Shown here one piece after another: positions 35,721 to 58,538 of a DNA stretch of 64,000 nt. A model generated the notes under the pieces. That model was given only the letters and a program-made list of their open reading frames with translations, was not told where the DNA came from and made no database searches. How positions within the stretch are numbered: position 1 is the first letter of the stretch; each line of letters opens with the position of its first letter. The stretch is taken from the NCBI GenBank assembly GCA_030680415.1, contig JAUXVE010000066.1, positions 30,899 to 94,898 of the forward strand. The letters run 5' to 3'. This DNA comes from Rubrivivax sp. Lineage in GTDB: Bacteria; Pseudomonadota; Gammaproteobacteria; Burkholderiales; Burkholderiaceae_C. The translations under genes were made by a program, and so were the position numbers.

Positions 35721-36916
35721 AGCCACGCACAGTGCTGTCGATGGAACAGGCCCTGTCCTTGCCTTACGCGACGCTGCGCTTCGCCCAGCTCGGCTGGCGC
35801 GTCATCCGCATCGAGGCCACGCCGTCCGGCGCCGGCCTGCCCGGTGACCCGAACCGCTACATCGGCAGCCGCCTGAGCGACGACCACGACGACGACCGCC
35901 GCAGCTACTTCGTGGCACCGAATGTCGCCAAGGAAGCGATCGCGCTCAACCTGAAGGACGCCCGCGGCCAGCACTTGCTCGCACGCCTGATCAACGCCTT
36001 GGATGTCGACGTGTTCTGCTGCAATACGCTGCCGTCTCGCTACGGCAGTCTGGGCATCGCCCCGGCCACGCTGCGCGCCGTGCGCCCGCAACTCATCTGG
36101 GCCGGCATCTCGGCGCAGGGTCCGGCCTGGCCCGAGGCACCGGGCTACGACCCGGTGTTGCAGGCGATGGCCGGCTATATGGAAGTCACCGGCGACCGCA
36201 ACGGCCCGCCGATGCTGACCGGCATCCCGGTCATCGACCTCAAGGCCGGCGACGAACTCTTCGCGGGGGTGATGATGGCGCTGCTGGAGCGGCACGAGAC
36301 CGGCGCCGGCAAGGAGATCCATGTCTCCATGCTGCAGGCCGCGGCCTCGTGGCTGATCACCGTTTTGCCCTTGATCGATTTCGGCTGCCAGCCCGGCGAG
36401 ATCACGCGCGCCGGCAACGAGCACCGCAAGTTCATTCCCACCAACGTCTACCCGGCGCGCGACGGCTACCTGTTCATGGCCATCGGCAGCGACGTGCAAT
36501 GGCGGCGATTCACCGCGATCCCGAAGTTCACGTGCGTCGCCAACGAGCTGCGCAAGACCAACGAAGGACGCCACCAGGAGCGCGAGGCGATCCACCGCGA
36601 CATTGCCGCGGTGACCGCTGCGCACCCGGTCGACGAGACGCTGGCCGAGCTGCGCGGCGCCACCATCCCGGCCACGCGCATCAACGACATCCGCCAGGTG
36701 CGCGAGTTGCCCCAGCTGCGCGACAAGCTCACCCGCACCACGCTGCCCGAGGGGCGCAGCGTGCGCATGCAGCCGATGGCCGTGGACCTGCCGCAGGCGA
36801 GCGCCGAATTCGCTTTCGCACCGAAGTATGGCCAGCACACGCGCGAAGTGCTGGCCGAGGCCGGCTTGGGCAACGACGAGGTGCATGCGCTTTACGGCGC
36901 AGGCATCGTGGCCTGA
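35717..36916 (+). CDS. iaaL: Family III CoA-transferase (CaiB/BaiF; IaaL-like)
   Basis: [32 protein letters not shown]. Confidence 0.75.
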
Positions 36917-41066: not shown

Positions 41067-41791
41067 CGCGTCTGCTCGAAGTACGTGACCTCGTCGTCCG
41101 CTACGGCAGGGTCGAGGCCCTGCACGGCGTGAACCTGGACGTCGATGCGGGCTCCATCGTCACCGTGATCGGCCCGAACGGCGCCGGCAAGACGACGCTG
41201 CTGGCCGCGCTCATGGGCCTGCTGCCCAGCAGGGGAACGGTGCGCTACGCCGGCGGCGAAGTGGCCGCGATGCCGGTCGAGGCGCGTGTGGCTGCTGGCG
41301 TGTCGCTGGTGCCCGAGCGGCGCGAGCTGTTCGGCGAGCTCTGCGTCGAGGACAACCTGCGCCTGGGCGCGTTCCATCGCGTGCGCCGCGGCGAGCGTGG
41401 CGCCGACATGGATCTGGCTCCGATCTACGCGCGTTTCCCGCGCCTGCAGGAACGCCGGCGCCAGCTCGCCGCCACTTTGTCGGGGGGCGAACGCCAGATG
41501 CTGGCGATCGGACGCGCGCTGATGGCCAAGCCCAGACTGCTGATGCTCGACGAACCCAGCCTCGGTCTGGCGCCGCGCATCGTGCGCGACATCCTGCATA
41601 TCGTCGGCGAGCTGCGCGAGACCGGCGTGGCGATCCTGCTGGTGGAGCAGAACGCGCGCGCCGCGTTGCAGATCGCCGACCGCGGCTATGTGCTCGAGAC
41701 CGGCGAGGTCGCGCTGGTGGGCACCTCGGCCGAACTCGCCGGCAACCCACGCGTGGTCGAGTCCTACCTTGGCTTTGGCGGCACGGCATGA
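41063..41791 (+). CDS. ABC transporter ATP-binding protein (LivF-like)
   Basis: [26 protein letters not shown]. Confidence 0.9.
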
Positions 41792-43335
41792 ACCTCGCAA
41801 CCAGAGCGCTGCCTTGCACCTGGCCGACGGTGGTCGAGATGCTCGCGGCTGCGGCGGCCGACGCACCGGCCAGCGAGGCGCTGGTCTGTGGCGAGCGCCG
41901 CATCGACTACGCCACCTACCTCGCCTGCGTTGCCGGCTTCGCGCGCGAGCTGGAGCCTCTGGGCGCGCGGGGCGGCCGCGTCGCCACGCTGGTCGGCAAC
42001 TCGATCGAGGCCTGTGTGGCCGCGTTCGCCGCCCTGGCCGCTGGCGCCCAGCAGGTGCCGCTGAACCCGCTGTACACCGAGCATGAACTCGGGCCGATCC
42101 TCGAGGACGCCGCACCGATCGTGCTGGTGGTCGACGAGGCGGCGGCGCGCATGGCCGAACCGGTCGCCCGGCGCGCCGGCGTCCGGCACGTGATCGTGGT
42201 TGGCGACCACACCCGGCGGCTCGACACCTGGCGCGCCGGCGAGGCCGGGTTGCCGCCCCTGCCCGACGCGCAGTCACTGGCCCTGCTGCAGTACACCGGT
42301 GGCACCACCGGCCGCGCCAAGGGCGTGGATCTGAGCCACCAGGCGATTGCGATCAACGTCGCGCAGCGCGAGGCCTTGCTGCCCAGCCACCGTGGCGACC
42401 GCATCCTGTGCATGATGCCGCTGTCGCACGCTTACGGCATGGCCATGGGCCTGTTCCTCGCTGCCTATTGCGGCGGCGTGCTGGTGATCCTGCCGCGCTA
42501 CCAGCCCGACGAGGTGCTCGCGGTGGTGCCGCGCGAGCGCATCGGCGTGTTTCCGGGCAGCCCGACGGTGTTCGTCGGGCTGATGGCGCACCCTGATTTC
42601 GGCCGCACCGATTGGCGCAGCGTGCACACCTGCTACTCGGGCGCGTCGGCGCTCGCGTCGGCCACGCTCGAACGCTGGCGCGAGGCCGTCGGCGCCCCCG
42701 TCTACGAGGGCTACGGCCTGACGGAGGCCGGGCCGGTGCTGTCGTTCAACCCCGCCGGCCGCCCGGCCAGGCCGGGCTCGGTGGGCGTGGCGGTGCCGTT
42801 GACCGAGATCGAGATCGTCGATGTCGAGAGCGGGCTCGCGGTGTTGCAAGCCGGGCAGCGCGGCGAGATCCGCGCCCGCGGCCCGCAATGCATGCGCGGT
42901 TACCGCAACCGCCCCGACGAGACCGCGCTGGCGCTGCGCGACGGCTGGCTCTACACCGGAGACATCGGCGAATTCGACGCCGATGGCTATCTGTACATCC
43001 GCGACCGCAAGAAGGACATGGTCATCGTCGGCGGCTACAACGTCTACCCGCGCGAAGTCGAAGACCTGCTGTTCAGCCACCCCGATGTGGCGGACGCGGC
43101 GGTGGTCGGCGTGCCCGACGCCTATCGCGGCGAGGTGCTCGTCGCCTTTGTCGTGCTGCGTGCCGGCGCGCTGGCCGATGTCGATGCGCTGCAGGCGCAT
43201 TGCCGCGCCAAGCTCGCCAGGTACAAGGTGCCGACGCGCCTGCGAATTGCCGATGCTTTGCCCAAAACCTTGGTCAACAAGACCGACAAGAGCGCGTTGC
43301 GGCGCGCGGCCGCGGCCGACGCCGAAGCCGATTGA
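41788..43335 (+). CDS. Second acyl-CoA ligase (AMP-binding)
   Basis: [37 protein letters not shown]. Confidence 0.88.
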
Positions 43336-43351: not shown

Positions 43352-45370
43352 TTGACCTCGACCCGCTTCGCCAATCCCCTGCTGCAGCCCGCGACACGGC
43401 CGCAGCCGCGTCACATCGGCGTCATCGGCGCGGGCACGATCGGCCCCGACATCGCCTACTACCTGAAGGGCGCGCTGCCGGGGCTGAAGCTGACGCTGGT
43501 CGACATCCGCCAGGCGGCAATCGATGCCGCACTGGCGCGGTTGCGCGAGTACACCGACAAGGCCTTGGCGCGCGGCAAGCTCACCGCCGCGGCCGCTCGA
43601 GAGCTGCCGCAGGGCCTGCACGGCAGCACCGACTACGGCACGCTGGCCGACTGCGACTGGGTGCTCGAGGCAGCGACCGAGGACCTGGCGCTCAAACGCC
43701 GCATCTTTGCCGAGGTCGAAGCGCGCGTTGCCAGCGACGCGGTGATCACCTCCAACACCAGCTCGTTGCCGGCGGCGCGCATCTTCGCCGCCCTGCGCCA
43801 CCCCGAGCGCGCGACCGTGACGCACTTTTTCGCGCCCGCCTGGCGCAACCCGGCGGTGGAAGTCATCGACTGGCCGCGCGCCGACCCCGCGCTCGTCGCC
43901 TGGTTGCGGCGCTTGTTCTGCGCCACCGGCAAGCTGCCGCTGGTGACGGCCGACGCGCCCTGCTTCATGCTCGACCGCGTGTTCGACAACTGGTGCAACG
44001 AGGCCGCCCTGCTGCTCGGCGACGCCACCGCGGCCGCGATCGACAGCGTCGCCGGCGAGTTCGTGCACGCCGGGCCGTTCTTCGTGCTCAACCTGGCGCA
44101 CGGCAACCCGATCATCATCGAGACCAACACGCTGCAAGCCGACGAGGAAGGCGAGCACTACCGGCCGGCCGCCATCTTCCGCTCGGTCGAGCGCTGGCTC
44201 ACCGGCGCCCCCAACCGGCCCGCCGAAGTGCCGGCCCCGACGCGGGCACGCATCCGTGACCGTCTGCTCGGCGTGCTGCTGTCGCAAACGGTGGACATCC
44301 TGGACCGCGGCATCGGCGGCGCGGCCGACCTCGACCTGGGCTGCCGCACGGCGCTCGGCTTCAAGCAGGGGCCGATCGAGCTGATGCGCGGGCTGGGCGA
44401 GGCCGAGGTCGCCCGTCTGCTCGAACGATTCGGACATGATCGGCCCGGCATGCCGGTGGCGCAGCGTGCCCTGGCCACCTACCTGCCGGCCGAGCGCCAC
44501 GTGCTGGTCGACCGCATCGACGACGTGCTCGTGATCACGCTGCGCCGGCCCGAGGCGCTGAACGCGTTGCACGACGAGATGACCGACGAGATCCTCGCGC
44601 TGCTGCGCCGGCACGAGGACGACGCGGCCGTCGCCGGTTTCGTCATCGTCGGCTACGGCACCAAGGCCTTCTGTGCCGGCGGCGACATCGGCCGCTTTCC
44701 GTCGCTGCTGGGCAACGCCGAGGCGGCGGCGCAATATGCGCGCGACTGCTCGCGGCTGCTGGTGCATCTGGACCGCAGCACCAAGCCGGTGGTCGCCGCG
44801 CTGAACGGCATGGCGCTCGGCGGTGGCCTGGAGCTGGCGATGCGCTGCCACGCCCTGGTGGCGCAGCGCAGCGCGTGGCTGCAAATGCCCGAAGTCACAC
44901 TCGGCATCCTGCCGGCCATCGGTGCGATGGTGGTGCCATTCCGCCGCTGGCCGGCGGCGGCCGCGGTCTTCTACGGCATGCTGACACGCGCCGAACGCGT
45001 CGACGCCGCCCAGGCCCATGGTCTGGGCATCGTCGACGAATTGGCCGAGGACTTCGATGCGCTGATCCGCCAGGCCGTGGCACGCGTGCACGCGCTGCAG
45101 GGGCGCGTGGGGCGCATCCCCGATGGCGCACAGACGCTGCCGCCCTTCGAGCCCGGTGAGGCGCGCACGGCCGAGGGTCGCGCACTCAGTCCGACCGTGG
45201 TGGGATTGATCGCCGGCGCGGTGCGCGACGCGGCGTCGTCGCCGACGCTGGAGCAGGCGCTCGAGATCGGCTATCGCGCGTTCGGCGTCGTCGCCTGCAC
45301 CGCCGCGGCGCATGAAGGCATAGCCGCCTTTCTGGCCAAGCGAGACGCCGACTTCAGCGCCACGGGGTAA
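43352..45370 (+). CDS. iaaP: 3-hydroxyacyl-CoA dehydrogenase / enoyl-CoA hydratase fusion (IaaP-like)
   Basis: GAGTIG, EAATEDLALK, TSNTSSL, HFFAP; then RPEALNAL, FCAGGDI, GGGLELA; GGGAG before TTG 43352. Confidence 0.72.
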   Translation: MTSTRFANPLLQPATRPQPRHIGVIGAGTIGPDIAYYLKGALPGLKLTLVDIRQAAIDAALARLREYTDKALARGKLTAAAARELPQGLHGSTDYGTLADCDWVLEAATEDLALKRRIFAEVEARVASDAVITSNTSSLPAARIFAALRHPERATVTHFFAPAWRNPAVEVIDWPRADPALVAWLRRLFCATGKLPLVTADAPCFMLDRVFDNWCNEAALLLGDATAAAIDSVAGEFVHAGPFFVLNLAHGNPIIIETNTLQADEEGEHYRPAAIFRSVERWLTGAPNRPAEVPAPTRARIRDRLLGVLLSQTVDILDRGIGGAADLDLGCRTALGFKQGPIELMRGLGEAEVARLLERFGHDRPGMPVAQRALATYLPAERHVLVDRIDDVLVITLRRPEALNALHDEMTDEILALLRRHEDDAAVAGFVIVGYGTKAFCAGGDIGRFPSLLGNAEAAAQYARDCSRLLVHLDRSTKPVVAALNGMALGGGLELAMRCHALVAQRSAWLQMPEVTLGILPAIGAMVVPFRRWPAAAAVFYGMLTRAERVDAAQAHGLGIVDELAEDFDALIRQAVARVHALQGRVGRIPDGAQTLPPFEPGEARTAEGRALSPTVVGLIAGAVRDAASSPTLEQALEIGYRAFGVVACTAAAHEGIAAFLAKRDADFSATG

Positions 45371-45420: not shown

Positions 45421-46230
45421 TCAGCGCGCCGCGTCGATGAACGCCAGCACGGCAGCGGCGAACTCCTCGGGCAGTTGATCCGGCAGCGGCACCATGCCGT
45501 GCGGGATGTCGTGCCGGGTGGCCTGGGGCAACTGTGCGCACAGCGCTTGGGCGTGCGGCGATGCGAACGGGTCGGCACCGGCTCGAAGCACCAGCACCGG
45601 CTGCCTGACGCGCGCGATGCGGTCTTCCATGCGATAGCGGGCAACGGCACGGTGACCGTCTTCGGCCCGGCCACCGGCCTTCAAGGCATCGAGCACGAAG
45701 GCCGCCAGCAATTCAGGCCGCTGCTGCGGGTAGAACGGCTGGCGCCGTTGCCACAGCTGCGCCAGGTGGCTGCCATCGGCCTGCGTGGCCACCTCGTCGA
45801 TGGGCGGTCGGGCCGCGCGCTCGCGACGGAATGCCGCGTCCGTGAAGGGGGTCGACGACAGCACGAGGCGATCGACACGCCCGGGGTACGCGGCGGCCAA
45901 CTCGACCGCGATCACGCCGCCGGTGTGGTGCCCAACGACATGGGCGCGCGCGATGCCCAGCGCGTCGAGCAGTTCGACCGCCACCGCTGCCCAGCGCTCG
46001 ATGCTCGGCGGCCAGCGCGGCACGAACGAATCACCGAAGCCTGCGGTGTCCATGGCGATGGCGCGATAGCGCGCGCCGAGGATAGGCAGCACCGCGGCGT
46101 ACTCGGCCCAGCTGCGCGGCGTCTGGTGCAGCAGCAGCACGGCTTGCCCTTGCGGCGGGCCGCATGCGGCGAAGTGAACCTGGCCATCGCGCAGGCCAGC
46201 GAAGGCGCGGTGAACGGTGGGGTCCGGCAT
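45421..46230 (-). CDS. Alpha/beta-fold hydrolase with atypical nucleophile elbow (GHHTGG)
   Basis: LLHQTPRS, DTAGFGDS, VVGHHTGG, GADP. Confidence 0.82.
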   Translation of the reverse strand: MPDPTVHRAFAGLRDGQVHFAACGPPQGQAVLLLHQTPRSWAEYAAVLPILGARYRAIAMDTAGFGDSFVPRWPPSIERWAAVAVELLDALGIARAHVVGHHTGGVIAVELAAAYPGRVDRLVLSSTPFTDAAFRRERAARPPIDEVATQADGSHLAQLWQRRQPFYPQQRPELLAAFVLDALKAGGRAEDGHRAVARYRMEDRIARVRQPVLVLRAGADPFASPHAQALCAQLPQATRHDIPHGMVPLPDQLPEEFAAAVLAFIDAAR

Positions 46231-46301: not shown

Positions 46302-49300
46302 ATGAGTCTGGCCAACGTCGCCCTCGACGACAAGTACGTTCTTGAACGCGGCCGCGTCTTCCTCACCGGCGTGCAGGCGCTGGCGCGGCTGCCGATGCTG
46401 CAGCGCCAGCGCGACCGTGCCGCGGGGCTGCACACCGCCGGCTATGTCTCAGGCTACCGCGGCTCGCCGCTGGGTGGTCTGGACACCGCGTTGCACGAGG
46501 CCGAACGCTTTCTGTCCGCACACGACGTGCGCTTTCGGCCCGGCGTCAACGAGGACCTCGCCGCCACCGCGATCTGGGGCACGCAGCAACTGCACCTGCT
46601 GCCGGGCGCCAGGCGTGACGGCATCTTCGCCATGTGGTACGGCAAGGGGCCCGGCGTGGACCGTTGCGGCGACGTCTTCAAGCACGCCAATTACGCCGGC
46701 ACGTCGGCCGCCGGCGGTGTGCTGGTGGTGGCCGGGGACGACCACGCCGCCCGTTCCTCGGCGGTGGCGCATCAGAGCGAGCACATCTTCTCGGCCTGTG
46801 CGATCCCGGTGCTGGCGCCGGCCGGGGTGCAGGACATCCTCGACTTCGGCTTGCACGGCTGGGCCATGTCGCGCTACACCGGCTGCTGGGTGGCGCTCAA
46901 GCTCAGCGCCGACGTCGTCGAGAGTTCGGCCACGGTGGAGATCGACACCACGCGCGTTCGGGTCCACACCCCCGATGACTTCGAACTGCCCGCCGACGGC
47001 CTGCACATCCGCTGGCCCGATCCGGTACTGGCGCAGGAACACCGGATGCAGGCCTACAAGATCTACGCCGCCGCTGCCTACGCGCGCGCCAACGGCCTGG
47101 ATCGGGTGGTCTACGACAGCCCGCGCGCGCGCCTGGGGCTGGTGGCCTGCGGCAAGGCCTGGCTGGACTTGCGCCAGGCCTTGCACGATCTCGGCATCGA
47201 CGCGGCGGCGGCCGCGCGCCTGGGCCTGCGCGTCTACAAGGTCGGCATGCCCTGGCCGCTCGAGGCCGACGGCGCGCGCCGCTTCGCCACCGGGCTCGAA
47301 GAGATCCTGGTCGTCGAGGAGAAACGCCAGATCATCGAGTACCAGCTCAAGGAGATGCTCTACAACTGGCGCGATGACGTGCGCCCGCGTGTCCTGGGCA
47401 AGTTCGACGAGACCGGTGAATGGCCGGCACCGCCGCACCAATGGCTGCTGCCGCCCACCGGCGAGTTGACGCCGGTGCTCGTCGCGCGCGCGGTCGCTGC
47501 GCGTCTGGCGCGTCTGGATGCCGCAGGCCACTGGATCGAGCGTGCCGACGCGCTGGCGGGCCGCACCGCCGCGCCGGCACGCTCGCCACTGCAGCGCACA
47601 CCGTACTTCTGCTCGGGCTGCCCGCACAACCGCTCGACGCTGGTGCCCGCGGGCTCGTGCGCGTTCGGCGGTGTCGGCTGCCACCTGATGGCGGTGACGA
47701 TGGAGCGCAACACGCTGACGATCAGCCAGATGGGCGGTGAAGGCACCACCTGGATCGGCATGGCCGAGCATGCCGGCGCCCCGCATGTGTTTGCCAACAT
47801 GGGCGACGGCACCTACTTCCACTCCGGGCTGCTGGCGATCCGTGCTGCGGTGGCGGCCGGCGTCAACATCACCTACAAGCTGCTCTACAACGACGCCGTC
47901 GCGATGACCGGCGGCCAGCCGGTGGACGGTTCGCTGACCGTGCCGCAGCTCACGCGCCAGATCGACGCCGAGGGTGTCGGGCGCATCGTCGTGCTCGCCG
48001 ATGACCCGGCCAAGTACCCGCCGGCTGCCGACTTCGCCCCTGGCGTCCAGGTCTTGCCGCGCGAACAGCTCGACGCGGTGCAGCGCGAGCTGCGCAGCCT
48101 GCCCGGTGTCACCGTGCTGGTCTACGACCAGGGCTGTGCCACCGCAGCACGGCGCCGGCGCAAGCGCGGCGACTTGCCGGCGCCGACGCGTCATGTCTTC
48201 ATCAACGAGGCCGTGTGCGAAGGCTGCGGCGACTGCAGCGTCAAGTCCAACTGCCTGTCGGTGGTGCCGGTGACCACCGAATTCGGGCCCAAGCGTGCGA
48301 TCGACCTCTACACCTGCAACCTCGACCTGAGCTGCCTCGAGGGCTGCTGCCCGGCCCTGGTCACCGTCGAAGGGGCCGTACCCAGGCGCGCGCAGGGGCT
48401 GCCGGTGGGCGACGAGGCTCTCCCCGAGCCGGTGCTGCCGGCACTCGAGGAACCGTATTCCCTGCTCATCGCCGGTGTCGGCGGCACCGGTGTCGTGACG
48501 CTCGGGGCGCTGCTCGGCATGGCCGCGCACCTGGAGGGCAAGGGGGTCACCGTGCTCGACCAGACCGGGCTGGCGCAAAAGGGCGGCGCGGTGCTGACGC
48601 ATGTGCGCATCGCCGCTGCGCCCGATGCGCTGCACGCGCCGCGCATCGTGCACGCCGACCTGCTGCTGGGCTGCGACCTGCTGGTGGCAGCGGCAGCCGA
48701 TACCCTGCAACGCCTGCGGCGCGACCGCACGCGCGCCGTCGTCAACACGGCGCAGGCCATCACGGGCGCATTCGTTCGCCACCCCGAGCAGACGTTCCCG
48801 GGTGATGCCACGCTGGCACTGCTGCGCGACACGGTGGCTGCCGCCGACGAGATCGATGCGACGCGGCTCGCCTCGCTGCTGGTCGGCCACTCGATCGCGA
48901 CCAACATGTTCATGCTCGGCTATGCCTGGCAACGTGGCTGGGTGCCGGTCGGGCACGCGGCGCTGATGCGCGCGGTCGAGCTCCATGGCGTCGCCGCGGC
49001 CGACAATCGGCACGCCTTTGCCTGGGGCCGGCACGCTGCCGTCGACCCCTCGCGCGTGGCGGGCCAGGCCGCTGCTGCCGAGGCGCTGCCGCCGTCGCGC
49101 CGGCTGTCGCGCGACCTCGACGAGGTCGTCGCGCGCCGGCGTGCCGATCTGGTGGCCTATCAGGGCGAGGCGCTCGCGCGCCACTACGGCGCTCTGGTCG
49201 AGCGTGTGCGCCGCGCCGAACAGCAGGCCGTGCCTGGCAGCGAGCGCTTGGCCCAGGCCGTGGCGCGGCAGGCCCACCGCCTGTTCGCGTACAAGGACGA

Positions 49301-49784
49301 GTACGAGGTCGCTCGCCTGTTCGGCGACCCCGCGTTCGCTGCCACGCTGGCCGCCACCTTCGAAGGCGAGTCCCGGGTTCGGTTCCATCTGGCGCTGCCG
49401 TGGCAACGCGCAGCGGTCGCTGGCGAGCCACGCAAGCAGACCTTCGGGCCCTGGATAGGGCCTGCGATGCGGCTGCTGGCGCATGGCAAGTGGCTGCGCG
49501 GCACGCCATGCGACCCCTTCGGGTGGGGCGCCGAGCGCCGTCTCGAACGTGCGCTGGCCGCCGAGTACGAGACCAGCGTCGAACGCCTGCTGCGCCGGCT
49601 CGACGCCGGACGGCTGGACGCGGCGGTGGCGATCGCCGAACTACCGGCGCGCATCCGTGGCTTCGGCCCGGTCAAGCAAGGCCAGGCACAGGCCGCGCGC
49701 GAGCGTCTGGCCGCGTTGCTGGCGGCCTACGAGGCCGACGCGCCACAGCCGCGGGCGGCCATGGCCGCGGCCCGGCCCGCATGA
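46302..49784 (+). CDS. Fused indolepyruvate:ferredoxin oxidoreductase-family protein (2-oxoacid oxidoreductase)
   Basis: SGYRGSPLG, FCSGCPH, TPP motif GDGTYFHSG...NDAVAMTGGQ, CEGCGDC ferredoxin, GVGGTGV, TGLAQKGG. Confidence 0.88.
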   Translation: MSLANVALDDKYVLERGRVFLTGVQALARLPMLQRQRDRAAGLHTAGYVSGYRGSPLGGLDTALHEAERFLSAHDVRFRPGVNEDLAATAIWGTQQLHLLPGARRDGIFAMWYGKGPGVDRCGDVFKHANYAGTSAAGGVLVVAGDDHAARSSAVAHQSEHIFSACAIPVLAPAGVQDILDFGLHGWAMSRYTGCWVALKLSADVVESSATVEIDTTRVRVHTPDDFELPADGLHIRWPDPVLAQEHRMQAYKIYAAAAYARANGLDRVVYDSPRARLGLVACGKAWLDLRQALHDLGIDAAAAARLGLRVYKVGMPWPLEADGARRFATGLEEILVVEEKRQIIEYQLKEMLYNWRDDVRPRVLGKFDETGEWPAPPHQWLLPPTGELTPVLVARAVAARLARLDAAGHWIERADALAGRTAAPARSPLQRTPYFCSGCPHNRSTLVPAGSCAFGGVGCHLMAVTMERNTLTISQMGGEGTTWIGMAEHAGAPHVFANMGDGTYFHSGLLAIRAAVAAGVNITYKLLYNDAVAMTGGQPVDGSLTVPQLTRQIDAEGVGRIVVLADDPAKYPPAADFAPGVQVLPREQLDAVQRELRSLPGVTVLVYDQGCATAARRRRKRGDLPAPTRHVFINEAVCEGCGDCSVKSNCLSVVPVTTEFGPKRAIDLYTCNLDLSCLEGCCPALVTVEGAVPRRAQGLPVGDEALPEPVLPALEEPYSLLIAGVGGTGVVTLGALLGMAAHLEGKGVTVLDQTGLAQKGGAVLTHVRIAAAPDALHAPRIVHADLLLGCDLLVAAAADTLQRLRRDRTRAVVNTAQAITGAFVRHPEQTFPGDATLALLRDTVAAADEIDATRLASLLVGHSIATNMFMLGYAWQRGWVPVGHAALMRAVELHGVAAADNRHAFAWGRHAAVDPSRVAGQAAAAEALPPSRRLSRDLDEVVARRRADLVAYQGEALARHYGALVERVRRAEQQAVPGSERLAQAVARQAHRLFAYKDEYEVARLFGDPAFAATLAATFEGESRVRFHLALPWQRAAVAGEPRKQTFGPWIGPAMRLLAHGKWLRGTPCDPFGWGAERRLERALAAEYETSVERLLRRLDAGRLDAAVAIAELPARIRGFGPVKQGQAQAARERLAALLAAYEADAPQPRAAMAAARPA

Positions 49785-50965
49785 CGCGCAGCTGGCGGCG
49801 GGCCGCGGCGGCCCCCCTGCTGGCGAGCGGCTTCCGCCCCTTCTACCTGCTGGGTGCGCTGTACGCGCCGCTGCTCGCCGTCGGTGGCATCGGCGCCTTC
49901 CTCGGCATCGTCGACCTCGCCGGGTCGCTCGGGCCCGCGCTGTGGCATGGGCACGAAATGCTGTTCGGCTTCGCCACCGCCATCGTCGTCGGCACCCTGC
50001 TGACGGCCTTGCCGAGCTGGGCCGGCATGCCCGAACTCCGCGGCCCGCCGCTGGCCTGGCTGACTGCGGCCTGGCTGCTCGGGCGCATCGCCTTCTGGGC
50101 CGCACCCTGGCTGCCGCCACTGGCGGTGGCGCTGGCCGACCTGCTGCTGTGGCCGCTGCTGGCCGCCGTTCTGGCGCCGGCACTGTGGCGGGTGCCGAAC
50201 CGGCTGTACCGCTTGCTGTTGCCGATCCTGCTCGCGCTCGTGGCGGCCAACCTGAGCTACCACGCAGCGGTGCTGGCCGGCGACGTGCCGCTCGCGCAGC
50301 GGGCACTGCACGCCGCGGTCTGGACGCTGGTGGTGCTGTTCACGCTCAAGGGCGGTCTGCTGACACCGATCTTCACCGGCAATGCGCTGCGCGAACTCGG
50401 GCGCGGCGAGCAGGCGCGTTTCCTGATGCCGCTGGAGGCGCTGGCCTTGCTGCTGCTGCTTGGGCTGGCGGTGGCCGACCTGGCTGGCGCACCAGCCACC
50501 GCCACCGGGGCGCTGGCCGCTGCCTGCGCGCTGGTGCATGGCGTGCGCGTGGCGCGCTGGCGCGGCTGGCGCGTCGCCGACCAGCCGCTGCTGCCGGCCA
50601 TGCACCTGGGCTTCGCATGGCTGCTGATCGCGCTCATGCTCAAGGCCGCGGCCGACCTCGGCAGCCCGGTACCGCAGGCCGCCTGGCTGCACGCCTTCAC
50701 GGTCGGTGCGCTGGGCATGATGATGCTCGGTCTGATGACACGGGTGTCGCTGCGTCACACCGGGCGCGCGCTCGCGGCGCCGGCGCCGATGCGCGCCGCT
50801 GCGGTCGCGATGTTCATCGCCGCGGCGCTGCGCTTGGCCACCACCGTGCACGGCCTGGGTCCCTGGGCGATGACGCTGGCCGCACTGCTGTGGGCTGCGG
50901 CCTTCGTCGTCTACCTGGTGCGCTTCGGCGCCGTGCTCGTCGCACCCAGCCTGCCGCGCGCCTGA
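49781..50965 (+). CDS. nnrS: NnrS-family membrane protein
   Basis: GFRPFYL, WHGHEMLFGF, HAFTVG, RVSLRHTGR; ATGA overlap with the oxidoreductase. Confidence 0.88.
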   Translation: MTRSWRRAAAAPLLASGFRPFYLLGALYAPLLAVGGIGAFLGIVDLAGSLGPALWHGHEMLFGFATAIVVGTLLTALPSWAGMPELRGPPLAWLTAAWLLGRIAFWAAPWLPPLAVALADLLLWPLLAAVLAPALWRVPNRLYRLLLPILLALVAANLSYHAAVLAGDVPLAQRALHAAVWTLVVLFTLKGGLLTPIFTGNALRELGRGEQARFLMPLEALALLLLLGLAVADLAGAPATATGALAAACALVHGVRVARWRGWRVADQPLLPAMHLGFAWLLIALMLKAAADLGSPVPQAAWLHAFTVGALGMMMLGLMTRVSLRHTGRALAAPAPMRAAAVAMFIAAALRLATTVHGLGPWAMTLAALLWAAAFVVYLVRFGAVLVAPSLPRA

Positions 50966-51002
50966 CCGGCGCCGTCGATCGCCGGCCAGGCCCGACGGCC
51001 TG

Positions 51003-52373
51003 CTAAGCCGTTTCCGCCACCGACGGCAAGCCGGCCAGCGCCATCGCCAGTTCGGCCTCGTCGTAGCTGAGATCCTGCAGCTTGCCGTCGAAGTAGTCGA
51101 TGTAGGCCTGCATGTCGAAGTGACCGTGGCCGCACAGGTTGAACAGGATCGTGCGCGACTGGCCTTCCTCGCGGCAGCGGATCGCCTCGACGATCGCCCC
51201 CTTGACGGCGTGGTTGGCCTCGGGTGCGGGAACGATGCCTTCGGCGCGTGCGAACTGCACGCCGGCGTCGAAGCAGGCGATCTGATGGTAGGCCGTGGCC
51301 TCGATCAGCCCCAGGTTCGAAAGATGGCTGACCAGCGGCGCCATGCCGTGGTAGCGCAGGCCACCGGCATGGAAGCCCGGTGGCGTGAAGGTCGAACCCA
51401 GCGTGTGCATCTTGGTCAGCGGCGTCAGGTGCGCGGTGTCGCCGAAGTCGTAGGCGTACTTGCCGCGCGTCAGGCTCGGGCACGCGGCCGGCTCGACGGC
51501 GACGATGCGCACCTTCTTGCCGCCACGCAGTTGCGCGCCCAGGAACGGAAATACGATGCCGGCGAAGTTCGAACCGCCGCCGGTGCAGCCGACGATCACG
51601 TCGGGAAAATCGCCGGCCATCTCCATCTGGACCATGGCTTCCTGGCCGATGATCGTCTGGTGCATCAACACGTGGTTCAGTACGCTGCCCAGCGCGTACT
51701 TGGTGTCGTCGCGCTGGGCCGCGATCTCGACCGCTTCGGAGATTGCGATGCCCAGGCTGCCCGGGTGATCGGCGCGTTGCGCGAGGATCGCGCGGCCCGA
51801 CTGCGTCTCGCTGGACGGTGAAGCCACGCAGCGCGCGCCATAGGTCTCCATCAGTGCGCGGCGGTACGGCTTCTGGTTGTACGACACACGCACCATGAAG
51901 ACCTCGACTTCGAGCCCGAACACGCAGCCGGCGAAAGCCAGCGACGAGCCCCATTGCCCGGCGCCGGTCTCGGTGACCAGGCGCTTGATGCCGGCCTCGC
52001 GGTTGTAGAAGGCCTGCGGGATCGCGGTGTTGGGCTTGTGGCTGCCCGACGGCGACACGCCCTCGTATTTGTAGTAGATCTTGGCCGGCGTCTGCAACGC
52101 CGCCTCGAGCCGGCGCGCCCGGTACAGGGGCGACGGCCGCCATTGCCGATAGACCTGGCGCACCGGCTCGGGGATGTCGATCTCGCGCTCGGTCGACACC
52201 TCCTGCATGATCAGTTCCATCGGAAACAGCGGTGCCAGATCGCCGGGACCGATGGGCTGGTGCGTGCCCGGGTGCAACACGGCCGGTGCCGGTTTCGGCA
52301 GGTCGGCCTGGATGTTGTACCAGGTCTTCGGCAGCTGCCCCTCGTCGAGCATGTACTTGATCGTGTCGCTCAT
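51003..52373 (-). CDS. trpB2: Tryptophan synthase beta chain 2 (TrpB2; indole-salvaging type)
   Basis: WYNIQADLP, YKYEGVSPSGSHKPNTA (PLP Lys), TETGAGQWG, GGGSNFAG, GLRYHG, NLCGHG; no trpA adjacent. Confidence 0.9.
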   Translation of the reverse strand: MSDTIKYMLDEGQLPKTWYNIQADLPKPAPAVLHPGTHQPIGPGDLAPLFPMELIMQEVSTEREIDIPEPVRQVYRQWRPSPLYRARRLEAALQTPAKIYYKYEGVSPSGSHKPNTAIPQAFYNREAGIKRLVTETGAGQWGSSLAFAGCVFGLEVEVFMVRVSYNQKPYRRALMETYGARCVASPSSETQSGRAILAQRADHPGSLGIAISEAVEIAAQRDDTKYALGSVLNHVLMHQTIIGQEAMVQMEMAGDFPDVIVGCTGGGSNFAGIVFPFLGAQLRGGKKVRIVAVEPAACPSLTRGKYAYDFGDTAHLTPLTKMHTLGSTFTPPGFHAGGLRYHGMAPLVSHLSNLGLIEATAYHQIACFDAGVQFARAEGIVPAPEANHAVKGAIVEAIRCREEGQSRTILFNLCGHGHFDMQAYIDYFDGKLQDLSYDEAELAMALAGLPSVAETA

Positions 52374-52458
52374 GTGTGCTCCTTCGGATTGCGGTTGAAG
52401 TCAACGGTCCACCCAATCAGGGCCGTCGCGCATGGTGCGGGGCGGACCTGCACTTGCC

Positions 52459-52472
52459 TTGATTTGCTTCAA
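52459..52472. promoter_or_regulatory. FNR/CRP-family box upstream of trpB2
   Basis: TTGATTTGCTTCAA (1 mismatch to TTGAT-N4-ATCAA), centre about 92 bp upstream of the ATG. Confidence 0.62.
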
Positions 52473-52530: not shown

Positions 52531-53232
52531 TCATCCCGTGTGCAGGAAGTGCCGGCTCGTGCCGTCGAGGACGAGGCAGGTCAGCACGCCGCTGCGGTGG
52601 GCCCCGGTGTCGATGCCGATGCGATTCGGGCGCAGTTGTGGCCGTTCGGAGATGCTGTGCCCATGCACGACGACCGCGCCGTGATCGAGCGTCGACTCGA
52701 GGAACGGCGCGCGGATCCACATCAGGTCGTGCGCGGCCTGCCGTTCGAGTGGCACCCCCGGTCGGACCCCGGCGTGGACAAAGAAGTAGTCGCCGCAATG
52801 GTGGCAATAGTCGGTCGAGCGCAGGAAACTGAGGTGCGCCGACGGCAGCACCGCGTCGAAAGCGTCGCGCAGGGCAGCAACAGTTGCGTTCTCGCGTCGA
52901 CGGCGGCCGGCGACGTCGACGCCGTAGTCGGCCAGCGTGTCGAGACCGTCGTAGTCGAACCAATGGCGGCCGGCATCGAGGTCGCCGTCGAGAAAGCGCA
53001 GCCAGAGGTCCTCATGGTTGCCGCGCAGCGTGATGCGGGTAAAGCCCGGTGGCGGGGCGGCAACCATCGTCTCGACGACGCGCCTGGAGTCGGCGCCCCG
53101 GCTCACGTAGTCGCCCAGATAGACCAGGCGCCGCTGGCGCGCCGGCCGCCGCGCCGCGTCGGCTTCGATCGAGACCAGAAGGGCCTGCAGCAAGTCGAAG
53201 GGGCCATGGATGTCACCGATCGCGTAGATCAC
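52531..53232 (-). CDS. Calcineurin-like metallophosphoesterase (PPP/PrpA-like)
   Basis: GDIHG, GDYVSRG, RGNHE, VHAG, VHGH, GIDTG. Confidence 0.87.
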   Translation of the reverse strand: MIYAIGDIHGPFDLLQALLVSIEADAARRPARQRRLVYLGDYVSRGADSRRVVETMVAAPPPGFTRITLRGNHEDLWLRFLDGDLDAGRHWFDYDGLDTLADYGVDVAGRRRRENATVAALRDAFDAVLPSAHLSFLRSTDYCHHCGDYFFVHAGVRPGVPLERQAAHDLMWIRAPFLESTLDHGAVVVHGHSISERPQLRPNRIGIDTGAHRSGVLTCLVLDGTSRHFLHTG

Positions 53233-53255
53233 GGTCCCGGCCGCCGTGCTCGCGC

Positions 53256-53855
53256 CTATCTCGGCGTTCGTCGCGGCTCCTTCGTGTCGGCGCCGTGGCC
53301 GGTCCAGCGCTGGAACAGGTCGTGCTCGATGCCGACCTGGTCGAGCGCCTTGCCCAGGGTCTGGTGAATGAGGTCCATGATCGTGCGTGGCCGGTGGTAG
53401 AACGCGGGCATCGGCGGCAGCAGCACCGCGCCACAGTCGGCCGCGCGTGTCATCAACTCCAGGTGTCCCCTGTGCAGCGGTGTCTCGCGCACCAGCAGCA
53501 CCAGCTTGCGCCCCTCCTTGAGCTGTACGTCGGCGGCACGCACGACCAGGTTGTAGGTGAACGAATTGGCGATCGCCGACAGCGTCTTCACCGTGCAGGG
53601 CGCGACGATCATGCCGCGTGTGCGGAACGATCCGCTCGCCACCGCGGCGCCGATGTCCTTGTTGCTGTAGACGATGTCGGCCAGCGCACGCACCTCTTCC
53701 AGCGTGTCGTCGGTCTCGATCGTCAGGTTCATGCCGGCCGCCTCGCTGAGGATCAGGTGCGTCGGCTGGCCCAGGCTCTTGAGCACGCGCAGCAGTTCGA
53801 CGCCGTAGATGACGCCGGTGGCGCCGGTGATGGCCACGATCAGGGGCAAGGTCAT
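53256..53855 (-). CDS. ubiX: Flavin prenyltransferase
   Basis: VAITGATG, IASGSF-like VASGSF, APCTVKTL, RAADVQLKEGR, RETP, PPMPAFY. Confidence 0.92.
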   Translation of the reverse strand: MTLPLIVAITGATGVIYGVELLRVLKSLGQPTHLILSEAAGMNLTIETDDTLEEVRALADIVYSNKDIGAAVASGSFRTRGMIVAPCTVKTLSAIANSFTYNLVVRAADVQLKEGRKLVLLVRETPLHRGHLELMTRAADCGAVLLPPMPAFYHRPRTIMDLIHQTLGKALDQVGIEHDLFQRWTGHGADTKEPRRTPR

Positions 53856-53883
53856 GAGTGGATCCTGTGCACGGGCATGGGGT

Positions 53884-54570
53884 TCAGGTGGCGAGCGCGG
53901 GCTGCTGCGCATCGACCGACTCGATGACCGGAATCCCGGCCGCCGCCAGCGCCGCGGCGACCTCGAGCACGTCGGCAGCGTGGAAACGGACGATGATCTT
54001 GTGCTCGACGAGGTCGTTGTCGATCTCCGCGTCGTGGCGGCCCAGCATCGGGTAGATCGCCTGCAGGACGGCGCCGGCGCCCTCGGCCACTTCGGCGATG
54101 CGCCCGATGACGCCGGCTCCGAGCCTGACGGGCCCGGTGGTGATGCCGCTGCAGCGCTGCCAGGCGCCCAGGCAATGCGCCGCGATCTGGAAGATCTCGT
54201 TGGCCGAGATCACGCCGACGACCCGATCGCCCTCGAGCACCGGGAACTGCGCGACGCCGAGTTCCCGACCCTTGCGCAGGCAGTATTCGATGGTGTCGCC
54301 GGCCTGAACCGTGCCCGGGTTGCGCACCATGACGTCGCGAACCCGCAGCCGGGTGACGAAGTAGTTGAACTCGTCGCTGTCCTGCGTGCGCAGCACGAAG
54401 TGGCCCATGCGCAACAGGTTGGCGCGTGTGACGAGGCCGCGAAGCCGACCGTCGTCGACCACCGGCAAGGCATGCAGGTTGTTCTCGCTGAGGATGCGCT
54501 TGGCCTCGGAGACCAGCGTGTCGCTCGCGATCGTCAACGGATCGGTCTGCATCCAGGTGCGCACGATCAT
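53884..54570 (-). CDS. ppsC: Phenylphosphate synthase gamma subunit (CBS pair + ACT-like)
   Basis: MIVRTWMQTDP...SEAKRILSENNLHALPVVDDGRLRG closely resembles remembered Thauera PpsC. Confidence 0.85.
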   Translation of the reverse strand: MIVRTWMQTDPLTIASDTLVSEAKRILSENNLHALPVVDDGRLRGLVTRANLLRMGHFVLRTQDSDEFNYFVTRLRVRDVMVRNPGTVQAGDTIEYCLRKGRELGVAQFPVLEGDRVVGVISANEIFQIAAHCLGAWQRCSGITTGPVRLGAGVIGRIAEVAEGAGAVLQAIYPMLGRHDAEIDNDLVEHKIIVRFHAADVLEVAAALAAAGIPVIESVDAQQPALAT

Positions 54571-54582
54571 CGCCGGCTCCTT

Positions 54583-55824
54583 TCAGCCCAAGGCCCGCGA
54601 CAGGCGATACAGACGCACGAACTCGTCGACGGCGACGCGTGCGAACTCGGGTGTGTACAAGTGAAGGTCGAATTCCTTGATGCGGGCCCGATCGTCGATG
54701 CGCTCCTTCAGGCGCGCGACGAAAGCGGCGTTGGCCTGCGGGTCGTGGATCGGGCGGCCGGCGCGGTCGAGCGACGACCAGCCCTGCAGCGGCACGAGGA
54801 AGCTCCACTCGCCGCGCGCCGCGTTGAGCCGCTCGGCAATGACGTCGGCGGCCTGGCGCAGTTCGTCGGCAGTGGTGCGCACCTGCACCCGAAGTGCGTC
54901 CTGCACGTACTGCACGCGGTCCTTCGTCTTGTCCAGCATATCGGCGCGGCCGCCGTAGGACAGGATGTCCAGCCCGCAGGGCGCCAGCACGGTCGGGATG
55001 CCGGCGGCGGCCGCCGCCTTCAGCCGGTCCGGCCCCGGGTCGCGGTTGCCCTTGAACAGGTGCTCCATGACGCCGCCGATGCAGATGTCGACCACGCCCT
55101 GGAAGGCGCCGTCGCGGATCATCTCCTCCATCGCCTTGTCGCCCTTGCCCTGGGCATGGCAGACGATCGGCGTGAAGCCCGCCTGCTCGAGCATGCCAAT
55201 GGCGGCCTGCACCGCCATCTCGCCGAAGCCGAAGGACGAGATCGCCACGCAGGGCTGGTCGAAGCGGAAGTCGATGCCCAGCGTCATCTCGACCATGCCG
55301 CAGATGGCGCCCACCGCGTTGACGATCTGCGCCTTCAGCAGCGGGTTCATCTTGACGATGTCGAGCACCGTGTGGTGCATCGTGATGTCGCGCGTGCCGA
55401 CGTACTGGTCGATGTAGGCCGGGTGCGCGGCCATCGGCGAGGCCATCAGCTTCGGCAAGCCGAAGGGCAGCGTCTTCATGATCGACGTGGCCACCAGTGT
55501 CGCGGTGCCGCCGCCGATGCCGATGATGCCGTGTACCCGGCCCGCCTGCACCAGCTCGGCGACGATGGCCGCCGCGCCGCGGATCTGGTTGCGCGTGGCG
55601 GTGTCGCGGTCGCTGCGGTACTTCTCGCGCACCACCTCGATCGGCAGGCCGCCGCGCGCCGCCACGTCCTCGGTGCGGATGTCGCCCGGGAACGGCGGTG
55701 GCTCTTCCATGCTGAAGTCGAGCAGGATCGGCTCGTGCCCGCGCCCGGCGATGAGGTCCTTGACGAAGGCGATGTCTTCGCCGCGCGTGTCCAGGTTACA
55801 GACGATGACGATGCCTTTTCTCAT
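54583..55824 (-). CDS. Tm-1-like ATP-binding domain protein (UPF0261)
   Basis: NLDTRGED, GIGGGTAT, LPFGLPKLM, SSFG, HAQGKG, APCGLD, PLQGWSSLD; start at ATG 55824 or GTG 55836. Confidence 0.8.
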   Translation of the reverse strand: MRKGIVIVCNLDTRGEDIAFVKDLIAGRGHEPILLDFSMEEPPPFPGDIRTEDVAARGGLPIEVVREKYRSDRDTATRNQIRGAAAIVAELVQAGRVHGIIGIGGGTATLVATSIMKTLPFGLPKLMASPMAAHPAYIDQYVGTRDITMHHTVLDIVKMNPLLKAQIVNAVGAICGMVEMTLGIDFRFDQPCVAISSFGFGEMAVQAAIGMLEQAGFTPIVCHAQGKGDKAMEEMIRDGAFQGVVDICIGGVMEHLFKGNRDPGPDRLKAAAAAGIPTVLAPCGLDILSYGGRADMLDKTKDRVQYVQDALRVQVRTTADELRQAADVIAERLNAARGEWSFLVPLQGWSSLDRAGRPIHDPQANAAFVARLKERIDDRARIKEFDLHLYTPEFARVAVDEFVRLYRLSRALG

Positions 55825-55846
55825 GCCGACCGCCACCGGGTTCGCG

Positions 55847-57352
55847 TCACTTGGCCTTCTTGGCTTCGGGCCGCGTCAGCCGGTTGATCATGCCGGCCAC
55901 CGGGCTGGCGCCGGCAAAGCCGTACTCGCTCCAGCGATCCGACACCTTCTGCAGCACGGCGCGGTCCATGAAGATCTCGCTCGGCTTGTTCTTCCACTCG
56001 AACGGCGTGCAGGCGTCGAGGATGATGCGGCTGGTGATCTCGCGCGCCTCGATCGGCAGCCCGGGGTCGAGCGGCGTCGAGCGGCCGCGGTCGATGATCT
56101 GCGCCGAGCGCTTGGGGTCGAAGCGCGTGGCCAGCGCCCACCAGATGCGGTCCCAGTCGTCGGCCTCGATGTCGTGGTCGACCGTGATCACGCCCTTGAC
56201 GCCGTAGTGCCCGGTGGTGCTGGCGATGACGGCGTTGCCGACGTGGTTCGAGTGCCCCGGGTACATCTGCTTGACCGAGACCACGACCCAGAAGCGGCCG
56301 CAGGCCTCGGGCGGGATGTAGACGCTCTGGATGCCCGGCACCTTCATCGTCTCGAGGTCGTGCCACAGCGTGGCGGTGCGGTTGAGCGACTGGATCATGT
56401 GGATGTCGTTGATCGGCTTGCCCACCGTCGTCGACCACATCACCGGCTTGTTGCGATGCAGGATGCGCTTGATGCGCAGCACCGGCTTCGGATAGTCCTT
56501 GCCCTTGTTGCCGGAGTAGTAACCCGTGTACTCGCCGAACGGCCCTTCGTCCATCAGCTCGTTGGGGTCGATGAAACCCTCGGCGATGATCTCGGCGTTG
56601 GCCGGCAGCGTCAGGCCGGTGACCTCGGACTTGAACACCGGCACCGGCCGGCCGCGCAGCGAGCCGGCGATGTCGTATTCGTCGACCTGCGCGCTGACCA
56701 GCGTCGAGGCGGCCAGGAACAGCACCGGGTCGCAGCCGACGACAGCCGCCGCGGGCATCAGCTCGCCGCGCTCCTGGTATTTCTTCATGTGCATGTCGCC
56801 ATGCTTGCCCTTGATGATCTGCGAGCCCAGGATGTCCCTGGCGAGCACCTGCGAGCGGTAGGTGCCCAGGTTCGTCCAGCCGGTGTCGGGGTCTTGCGTG
56901 ACCAGGAAGCCGGAGGTGACGAAGAAGCGGCCGCCGTCGTCCGGATAGAACCAAGGCGAGGGGAATTTCTCGATGTCGATGTCGGCGCCGGTGATCTGGT
57001 TCTCCATCACCGGCGGGTTGTCCACATGCACCGGCTTGACCATCTGCTTGGTGGTCAGCTCCATCCACTTCTTCGACAGCTGGCTCATCGACAGCGAGGG
57101 GTCCTGCTCGAGCGCGATCGCCAGCCGCTGCGCGGTGGTGAAGGCGCTGGTGAAGACCGGGATGTCGTAGCCCTTGACGTTCTCGTACAGCAGCGCCGGG
57201 CCCTTCTGTTCCTCGTTGACCTTCGAGACGTGGCAGAGCTCGAACTTCCAGTCGACCTCGGTCTTCACGCGGTGCAGTTGCCCGCTGGCCTCGAGTGCCG
57301 CGATGTAGCTGCGCAGGTCGTCGATGGGCCGGATGTCGTGGCGTGCATTCAT
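55847..57352 (-). CDS. ppcB: UbiD-family prFMN (de)carboxylase, phenylphosphate carboxylase beta-like
   Basis: EVDWKFELCHVSK, NLGTYR, EGPFGEYTGYY, RTATLW, GRFWVVVSVKQMYPGH, GRSTPLDP resemble remembered PpcB; located in a pps operon. Confidence 0.78.
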   Translation of the reverse strand: MNARHDIRPIDDLRSYIAALEASGQLHRVKTEVDWKFELCHVSKVNEEQKGPALLYENVKGYDIPVFTSAFTTAQRLAIALEQDPSLSMSQLSKKWMELTTKQMVKPVHVDNPPVMENQITGADIDIEKFPSPWFYPDDGGRFFVTSGFLVTQDPDTGWTNLGTYRSQVLARDILGSQIIKGKHGDMHMKKYQERGELMPAAAVVGCDPVLFLAASTLVSAQVDEYDIAGSLRGRPVPVFKSEVTGLTLPANAEIIAEGFIDPNELMDEGPFGEYTGYYSGNKGKDYPKPVLRIKRILHRNKPVMWSTTVGKPINDIHMIQSLNRTATLWHDLETMKVPGIQSVYIPPEACGRFWVVVSVKQMYPGHSNHVGNAVIASTTGHYGVKGVITVDHDIEADDWDRIWWALATRFDPKRSAQIIDRGRSTPLDPGLPIEAREITSRIILDACTPFEWKNKPSEIFMDRAVLQKVSDRWSEYGFAGASPVAGMINRLTRPEAKKAK

Positions 57353-57400
57353 GTTCGCTCCGTTTCGGTGGGGGGTTCGTGAAGGGTGGGAGAGGGGCGC

Positions 57401-58537
<1,137 letters not shown>

Positions 58538-58538
58538 C

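Follow-up and report, generated by a model that had tools for sequence, protein, structure and literature searches.

A fused indolepyruvate oxidoreductase-family gene and a stand-alone TrpB2 gene at the distal end of an iaa-type cluster in Rubrivivax, a candidate entry for tryptophan and indole

What are an oxidoreductase of the indolepyruvate family and a stand-alone tryptophan synthase beta-like enzyme doing behind a cluster for the anaerobic degradation of indoleacetic acid (IAA)? The question is raised by a stretch of 64,000 nucleotides from Rubrivivax sp. (contig JAUXVE010000066.1, positions 30,899 to 94,898; hereafter the window), in which a gene cluster of the iaa type is followed by a gene for a fused protein of the indolepyruvate ferredoxin oxidoreductase (IOR) family, an NnrS family gene and a gene for TrpB2 with a predicted FNR-type box before it. 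The initial annotation had located IOR, TrpB2, the box and the iaa genes where we find them, did not list NnrS between IOR and TrpB2, and had proposed that indole is drawn into the iaa pathway by way of tryptophan and indolepyruvate. The answer we favour is tentative and held with slightly less than even confidence: the stretch would form the accessory, distal part of an iaa island, where IOR makes indoleacetyl-CoA from tryptophan-derived indolepyruvate and TrpB2 feeds in free indole.

An oxidoreductase paralog that accompanies colinear iaa clusters

Genes of the window, which has approximately 70% G+C, were called from third-position GC and domain searches. The full iaa set was found co-clustered, comprising an IaaB-like ligase, a hydantoinase pair, a Mo-hydroxylase, an IaaL-type CoA-transferase, an IaaGH-type mutase, an IaaF-type acyl-CoA dehydrogenase (ACAD) and a 3-hydroxyacyl-CoA dehydrogenase/enoyl-CoA hydratase fusion (HCDH/ECH). 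A GntR regulator gene opens the cluster, followed by the iaaB-like CoA ligase (approximately 23371-24897), hydantoinases A and B, the IaaF-like ACAD (28720-29841) and the B12 mutase; the order continues with the 2Fe-2S and Mo-hydroxylase genes, the family III CoA-transferase (IaaL-like, 35729-36916), an ABC transporter and a second CoA ligase (41788-43335), and ends with the HCDH/ECH fusion (43352-45370). Because NCBIfam holds no iaa-specific models, the assignment rests on synteny with, and identity to, a locus of Aromatoleum evansii KB740 (L103), reportedly the strain used for studying anaerobic IAA metabolism. The iaa proteins of the window are 59-86% identical to those of this locus (hydB 86%, ACAD 82%, hydA 77%). 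The iaa pathway leads from indoleacetyl-CoA to 2-aminobenzoyl-CoA, with gene roles assigned here after PMC8360864.

With the HCDH/ECH fusion as query, 80 related loci (L046-L125) were fetched from 185,579 species genomes and compared with all proteins of the window. Carriers include many metagenome-assembled genomes, and isolate names suggest wastewater, groundwater and lake samples. Two architectures were apparent, one colinear, in which the CoA-transferase gene and then the HCDH/ECH gene lie on one strand, the other divergent and Aromatoleum-like. Among the 28 colinear loci with at least 5 kb of flank, 27 have an IOR gene of 60-80% identity after HCDH/ECH; among the ten divergent Aromatoleum-type loci, none has an IOR gene. 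The same pattern was seen within the window's genus: the iaa HCDH/ECH is present in 7 of 37 genomes, all seven of which carry an adjacent IOR of at least 67% identity, whereas the paralog is missing from the 30 iaa-negative genomes (0/30, none above approximately 58% identity; Fisher p = 1e-7 for co-distribution).

The window's genome also encodes a second fused IOR (contig C75, in the region 38.9-43.2 kb), 52-54% identical to that of the window. It adjoins a divergent gene that by eye, rather than by domain search, resembles an Lrp/AsnC-type regulator, with TRAP-transporter-like and amidase-like open reading frames (ORFs) nearby assigned in the same way, and it is probably a general amino-acid 2-oxoacid enzyme. 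Since the iaa-linked IOR is fixed in colinear clusters, occurs within the genus in iaa-positive genomes only and is so distant from the other paralog, we regard it as a dedicated paralog, and there is good reason to be confident that it belongs to the iaa system.

The window's IOR is a single chain of 1160 aa in which Pfam recognises the TPP_enzyme_C, POR and DUF6537 domains. It scores 1660 bits against NF009588, 'indolepyruvate ferredoxin oxidoreductase family protein' (cut-off 952), and 1594 bits against NF009589 (cut-off 816), and it also matches the IorA and IorB equivalogs weakly. Indoleacetyl-CoA is the product of IOR acting on indolepyruvate, and its genomic context, in the form of strict linkage to iaa, makes indolepyruvate the most likely physiological substrate. 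The protein is of the same family as the indolepyruvate:ferredoxin oxidoreductase of archaea and gut anaerobes, which converts arylpyruvates to arylacetyl-CoA, and would catalyse the same reaction. The archaeal enzyme, however, consists of two subunits, whereas that of the window is fused and carries DUF6537 at its C-terminus; and in peptide fermenters the IOR product yields IAA and ATP, whereas here it would enter iaa degradation.

The NnrS gene is tightly joined to that of IOR, its ATG overlapping the IOR stop codon (ATGA). NnrS is conserved with the iaa-linked IOR (L047, L056, L060, L064, L096, L110, L112-L117 and L121) and usually encoded just downstream; in L121 it is instead upstream of HCDH/ECH. 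Co-translated with IOR, NnrS may shield the Fe-S oxidoreductase from nitric oxide during denitrification.

Repeated recruitment of TrpB2 to iaa clusters

TrpB2 of the window (456 aa) is recognised by NF009057 (736 bits, cut-off 366) and TIGR01415 (629 bits, cut-off 518.85), whereas its score against the canonical trpB model TIGR00263 (145 bits) is below the cut-off of 392. Residues 11-424 align with the solved structure 6hul_B (440.9 bits), the GSHK motif with the pyridoxal phosphate (PLP) lysine is conserved, and the gene stands alone, its neighbours being those for NnrS and a metallophosphoesterase. In family, PLP-lysine motif and the lack of an adjacent trpA it matches TrpB2 of Thermotoga and Sulfolobus (PDB 6hul, 4qys and 6hte), and by its sequence would condense indole with serine or O-phosphoserine. 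The known enzymes, however, serve anabolic indole salvage, as is known or assumed, whereas the gene of the window adjoins a catabolic cluster and is preceded by an FNR-type box. Genes for trpB2 have been reported both apart from and within trp operons (PMC2700814).

The window and the genomes G067, G079, G068, G005, G002, G061, G062 and G063 each have a TrpB2 gene no more than 10 kb from an IOR-bearing iaa cluster, and the arrangement takes several forms. In type A (window, G079 and G067), HCDH/ECH, IOR and NnrS are followed by TrpB2 on the minus strand; in a variant, A', TrpB2 of G068 lies 7 kb past NnrS and adjoins bcr genes. Type B (G005, G002, G061 and G062) has a ligase, TrpB2, HCDH/ECH and IOR in this order on a single strand, separated by 36-100 bp, and G005 displays it within a 27-kb array, all on one strand, that reads iaaR-iaaB-hydAB-ACAD-mutase-Fe2S2-MoCo-CoAT-ligase-TrpB2-HCDH/ECH-IOR; on the short contig L077, too, TrpB2 is found directly before HCDH/ECH. 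TrpB2 is divergent from IOR in type C (G063), and in type D (G049) it borders an iaa cluster that has no IOR.

In a maximum-likelihood tree of 44 TrpB2 sequences, the linked copies occupy at least five separate positions: TrpB2 has been recruited beside or into iaa clusters on at least five independent occasions. In genomes of this size, a single-copy gene would fall within 10 kb either side of a given locus by chance in approximately 0.4% of cases per genome, and with a mean of 0.3 at least five independent events in approximately 70 genomes have a Poisson probability of about 1.6e-5. Gene-sized duplicates occur in two unrelated genomes: the linked copy of G049 (L027:8995-10375) duplicates the resident one (L026) over 1381 bp at 99.5% identity, and that of G063 (L121:15179-16586) duplicates its other copy (L150) over 1409 bp at 98.8%, the result of a recent duplication or else of a gene conversion that did not extend beyond the coding region. 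Linked and unlinked TrpB2 are 77-99.5% identical, these duplicates included, and because they are so nearly identical the ordinary TrpB2 reaction appears to be in use. The expectation of the initial annotation that trpB2, the oxidoreductase and iaa co-occur across genomes was thus upheld, in that IOR is strictly co-distributed with colinear iaa and TrpB2 recruited to it repeatedly, and we consider it probable that TrpB2 is functionally linked to the iaa-IOR genes.

The genome of the window contains a second TrpB2 gene, on contig C7, in addition to a canonical trpB on C36. On C7 (L041, 37.3-41.7 kb) the order is mfd-serB-trpB2, with the phosphoserine phosphatase gene serB identified by TIGR00338 (211 bits, cut-off 144); this order recurs in G049 (L026), and the Rhodoferax-like locus L083 has a serB-like HAD gene (Pfam Hydrolase/HAD). 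Such a neighbourhood hints at a coupling of phosphoserine or serine supply to TrpB2. Linked and second copies also coexist in G002, G049 and G063. The closest ortholog of the window's TrpB2 is 92% identical and encoded in the same island in G067. Among the genomes of the genus, 6 of the 7 that are iaa-positive carry TrpB2, versus 8 of the 30 that are iaa-negative (p = 0.007, uncorrected for kinship). At L143 and L151, which belong to the MFD04651 genomes G067 and G079, PpsA, PpsB, UPF0261, IOR and TrpB2 are among the genes split into 2-3 tblastn pieces. Joint pseudogenisation of IOR and TrpB2 in G079 was considered and rejected, many genes in both genomes being equally fragmented, and the splits are most likely assembly indel errors instead of pseudogenes.

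The initial annotation had given trpB2 an FNR-type box of its own, and the motif scan agrees. The predicted site, TTGAAGCAAATCAA, is near-perfect, a TTGAT-N4-ATCAA-like palindrome of the FNR/CRP family at promoter distance from the trpB2 start, with its proximal edge 86 bp upstream of the start codon. Four boxes of the strict form TTGAN6TCAA occur in the window, versus 0.08 in shuffles; besides that of trpB2 at 52459, they are found at 9444, just upstream of hcr-like Mo-enzyme ORFs, at 21234, at the start of the GntR ORF, and at 60708, between ppsA and xylR. The relaxed form TTG-N8-CAA has an expectation of approximately five occurrences per 64 kb. FNR-like boxes of this form that include an ATCAA half-site are found in the window, G079 (L151), G068 (L144) and G063 (L121), 99-153 bp upstream of the point where the TrpB2 alignment starts, and none was found before the two serB-linked copies checked (L026 and L041). 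Scanning 45.3-53.4 kb for terminators and sigma-70 promoters gave nothing above shuffle expectation.

A candidate route for tryptophan and indole, and its alternatives

In the route we favour, tryptophan would be converted to indolepyruvate by an unlinked general aminotransferase, and IOR would oxidatively decarboxylate indolepyruvate to indoleacetyl-CoA. As this is the first CoA intermediate of iaa, tryptophan would enter the pathway with no need for the IaaB ligase. TrpB2, presumably expressed from a predicted FNR/Dnr-type promoter of its own, would condense indole with serine or O-phosphoserine to form tryptophan and thereby draw indole into the route, for detoxification, assimilation or both. 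A tryptophanase model search of the genome gave no match, so that there is no obvious internal source of indole, and the indole would be external. We infer the substrates and the direction of flux, and a flux sufficient for growth on indole would likewise be an inference. The furthest-reaching form of the proposal, namely that denitrifying Burkholderiales mineralise free indole independently of O2 and with no prior hydroxylation, through TrpB2, transamination, IOR and the iaa pathway to 2-aminobenzoyl-CoA, is possible but rather doubtful. If it holds, indole activation by TrpB2, in which PLP-dependent catalysis joins indole to serine or phosphoserine through a new C-C bond, would be an addition of a co-substrate, with a logic comparable to fumarate addition, and a biosynthetic enzyme would have been repeatedly recruited as a catabolic gateway.

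Several observations weigh against this route. In denitrifying sludge, anaerobic indole degradation passes through oxindole, isatin and anthranilate, and no tryptophan intermediate was reported (PMC6221969). The initial annotation had already remarked that no transaminase is encoded in the window; no class I/II aminotransferase was found on the window's contig either, and tblastn with ten of the genome's PF00155 proteins detected none in the approximately 130 fetched loci, and a cluster-encoded enzyme was rejected for these loci. No FNR box was found before IOR. The TrpB2 gene lies on the strand opposite to IOR, which is that of the pps-like/UbiD cluster at 52.5-60.4 kb, and 157 bp downstream of the metallophosphoesterase gene of that operon; in G067, ubiX precedes it by 141 bp. 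No TrpB2 other than the linked copy exists in G005, G061, G062 and G067, where it is possibly an ordinary indole-salvage gene that was relocated. TrpB2 is also absent from approximately three quarters of the IOR-bearing iaa clusters, which makes it accessory and dispensable rather than a core step, and from all Aromatoleum-type clusters.

Indole salvage is the accepted role of TrpB2, and the enzyme might simply scavenge toxic or leaked indole and fill the tryptophan pool, with IOR perhaps running in reverse and carboxylating indoleacetyl-CoA to indolepyruvate, so that tryptophan, a costly amino acid, is made from IAA and indole and these are not broken down. The mfd-serB-trpB2 context of copies outside iaa clusters, the genomes in which the linked copy is the sole one and the lack of a cluster-dedicated transaminase are in keeping with this, and 2-oxoacid:ferredoxin oxidoreductases are reversible in principle. 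We nevertheless judge it unlikely, as recruitment was repeated and placed TrpB2 mid-operon in the catabolic arrays of G005, G002, G061 and G062, a second TrpB2 is kept in the window's genome, G002, G049 and G063, the IOR paralog is confined to genomes with IAA catabolism genes, and a reverse reaction requires low-potential ferredoxin, itself unlikely in denitrifiers and facultative aerobes. A salvage TrpB2 could also have no functional link to its neighbours and ride in a mobile island for anaerobic aromatic degradation, adjacent to iaa by hitch-hiking or shared ancestry. The window's TrpB2 does stand at the junction of two clusters, most iaa clusters lack the gene, and in four Rhodoferax-like loci (L083, L104, L108 and L118) TrpB2, in an mfd-HAD context, is divergent and beside HCDH/ECH with no other iaa genes near; L083, the only one annotated, continues with a GH10 gene and with a large 2-oxoacid oxidoreductase of the NAD(P)H type (POR_N, TPP_C, Fer4_20 and Pyr_redox_2 plus a POR gamma subunit). 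Against such a coincidence, the juxtapositions, at least five and independent, differ in arrangement and involve different TrpB2 clades, the type-B copies do not come from the Rhodoferax-type clade, gene-sized duplicates stand beside iaa/IOR genes in two unrelated genomes, and FNR-like boxes precede linked copies but neither of the serB-linked copies checked; together with the Poisson estimate given above, this renders it decidedly unlikely.

The remaining alternatives separate the two enzymes or give TrpB2 another substrate. It is improbable, in our view, that IOR oxidises some other 2-oxoacid and supplies reduced ferredoxin to benzoyl-CoA reductase or another step after 2-aminobenzoyl-CoA, with TrpB2 unrelated. 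A 2-oxoglutarate:ferredoxin oxidoreductase is encoded with bcr for such supply in Thauera, and in G068 and G079 the island goes on directly after TrpB2 with genes of the benzoyl-CoA reductase type (BcrAD_BadFG and HGD-D domains; L144:11008-14684 and L151:14702-15538), where the window has its pps-like cluster. IOR, however, follows iaa and not bcr, adjoining HCDH/ECH in nearly all colinear loci, several of them from generally aerobic genera such as Ramlibacter and Ideonella; the family models take their name from indolepyruvate oxidoreductase, and the recurrent recruitment of TrpB2 would be left unexplained. The window's TrpB2 might instead close the pps-like/UbiD/UbiX operon as its final gene and act, for example, on an N-heteroaromatic or phenolic product. 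From its 3' end this cluster encodes the metallophosphoesterase, UbiX, a CBS protein, UPF0261, UbiD (PpcB-like), PpsB-like and PpsA-like proteins, with a divergent XylR-type regulator; the shared strand and short gap in the window speak for membership, as does the gap in G067, which has no recognisable FNR box. Only the window and its 92%-identical relative show this linkage, G103 (L095) carries the cluster's UbiX beside NnrS yet has no TrpB2 anywhere in its genome, and eight other genomes (G079, G068, G005, G002, G061, G062, G063 and G049) tie TrpB2 to iaa although pps-like genes are lacking in the vicinity. Operon membership was for these reasons rejected as the principal explanation, and we give it very little credence. 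It is scarcely credible that linked TrpB2 uses another nucleophile, such as oxindole or an aminophenyl by-product, to form a non-canonical amino acid: TrpB-type enzymes do accept many nucleophiles, as engineered TrpB illustrates, but the high identity of linked to unlinked copies gives no sign of a change in specificity.

Neighbouring genes, related systems and implications

The features of the window are collected in Table 1. As the initial annotation had it, trpB2 lies between catabolic operons, with the iaa cluster on one side and the pps-like/UbiD cluster on the other. The alpha/beta-hydrolase gene antisense between the HCDH/ECH gene and IOR keeps its position in L055, L066, L067, L074, L098 and L109. 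In two type-B clusters a gene for a TctC (Bug-family) solute-binding protein lies between HCDH/ECH and IOR (L061:12063-13049 and L089:12030-13025), and the interval from HCDH/ECH to TrpB2 in L121 (12044-15174) encodes a flavoprotein of 658 aa resembling old yellow enzyme and 2,4-dienoyl-CoA reductase, a small ORF and a glyoxalase-fold protein.

Table 1. Positions of the features of the window and the evidence for each
Feature	Position	Strand	Evidence
Fused IOR-family 2-oxoacid:ferredoxin oxidoreductase, iaa-linked paralog	46302-49784	+	NF009588; Pfam TPP_enzyme_C, POR, DUF6537
NnrS family membrane protein	49781-50965	+	Pfam NnrS, 298.6 bits
Stand-alone TrpB2 (TrpB-like PLP enzyme)	51003-52373	-	NF009057, TIGR01415
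Predicted FNR/Dnr-type box TTGAAGCAAATCAA (trpB2 strand)	52459-52472		Motif scan
Alpha/beta-hydrolase, antisense between HCDH/ECH gene and IOR	45421-46230	-	Pfam Abhydrolase_1, 73 bits
iaa-type cluster, GntR regulator to HCDH/ECH fusion	21234-45370	+	Pfam; identity to KB740 locus
pps-like/UbiD cluster	52531-60371	-	Domain and family model searches

The iaa pathway, indole salvage by TrpB2 and IOR in amino-acid fermentation are each known separately; what appears to be new is their genomic combination. With the iaa genes of Aromatoleum aromaticum EbN1 and A. evansii KB740 (PMC8360864) the window shares homologs of IaaB, the hydantoinase pair, the Mo-hydroxylase, IaaL, IaaGH and IaaF, as well as the HCDH/ECH fusion, the GntR regulator and an ABC uptake system. 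Its cluster is colinear, whereas that of Aromatoleum is divergent, and its distal end carries the fused IOR and NnrS, with TrpB2 in a minority of genomes, none of which is encoded within 10 kb either side of the Aromatoleum HCDH/ECH; at L101 and L103, IOR and TrpB2 are both absent from this range, and neither is a recognised member of the Aromatoleum-type pathway. IOR and TrpB2 go unmentioned in PMC8360864, where 'tryptophan' and 'indolepyruvate' have 0 occurrences each.

The oxindole/isatin route has its substrate, indole in a nitrate-reducing setting, in common with the proposed one, and the two meet at an intermediate of the anthranilate level; the known route starts, however, with a water-dependent hydroxylation at C2, whereas the proposed route would start with the formation of a C-C bond at C3 with serine and would dispense with any direct hydroxylation of free indole. 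According to a 2018 review, anaerobic indole breakdown had been traced by metabolites only, with its enzymes and genes unidentified (PMC6221969). The initial annotation knew of no description of such a route, which stands in part. The literature searched contains no description of TrpB2 or IOR joined to iaa clusters, the primary iaa reports (Ebenau-Jehle 2012, Schuhle 2016) being outside its coverage, nor a relevant account of anaerobic indole degradation via tryptophan or fitness data for fused iorAB. The concept of turning indole into tryptophan and then into a catabolite, by contrast, has been demonstrated in Bifidobacterium, where 13C-indole and mutants traced exogenous indole through tryptophan (TrpB) to indole-3-lactate (PMC11085991). 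Uptake of indole by the tryptophan synthase beta reaction and subsequent indolepyruvate chemistry are shared with our proposal, but Bifidobacterium uses a canonical TrpB and secretes the end product, whereas here the enzyme is a TrpB2 whose gene is linked to a complete pathway for ring degradation.

Apart from the indole question, the IOR-iaa linkage gives a likely substrate for one member of a large and poorly characterised family. Indole is an abundant and toxic signalling molecule and a pollutant, and the genes described here would, if the proposal is true, be the first testable gene set for the O2-free mineralisation of indole and tryptophan. The degradation of auxin by iaa would then extend to two further natural substrates, and the funnelling of indole into it would offer a reason why 'orphan' TrpB2 persists in many bacteria.

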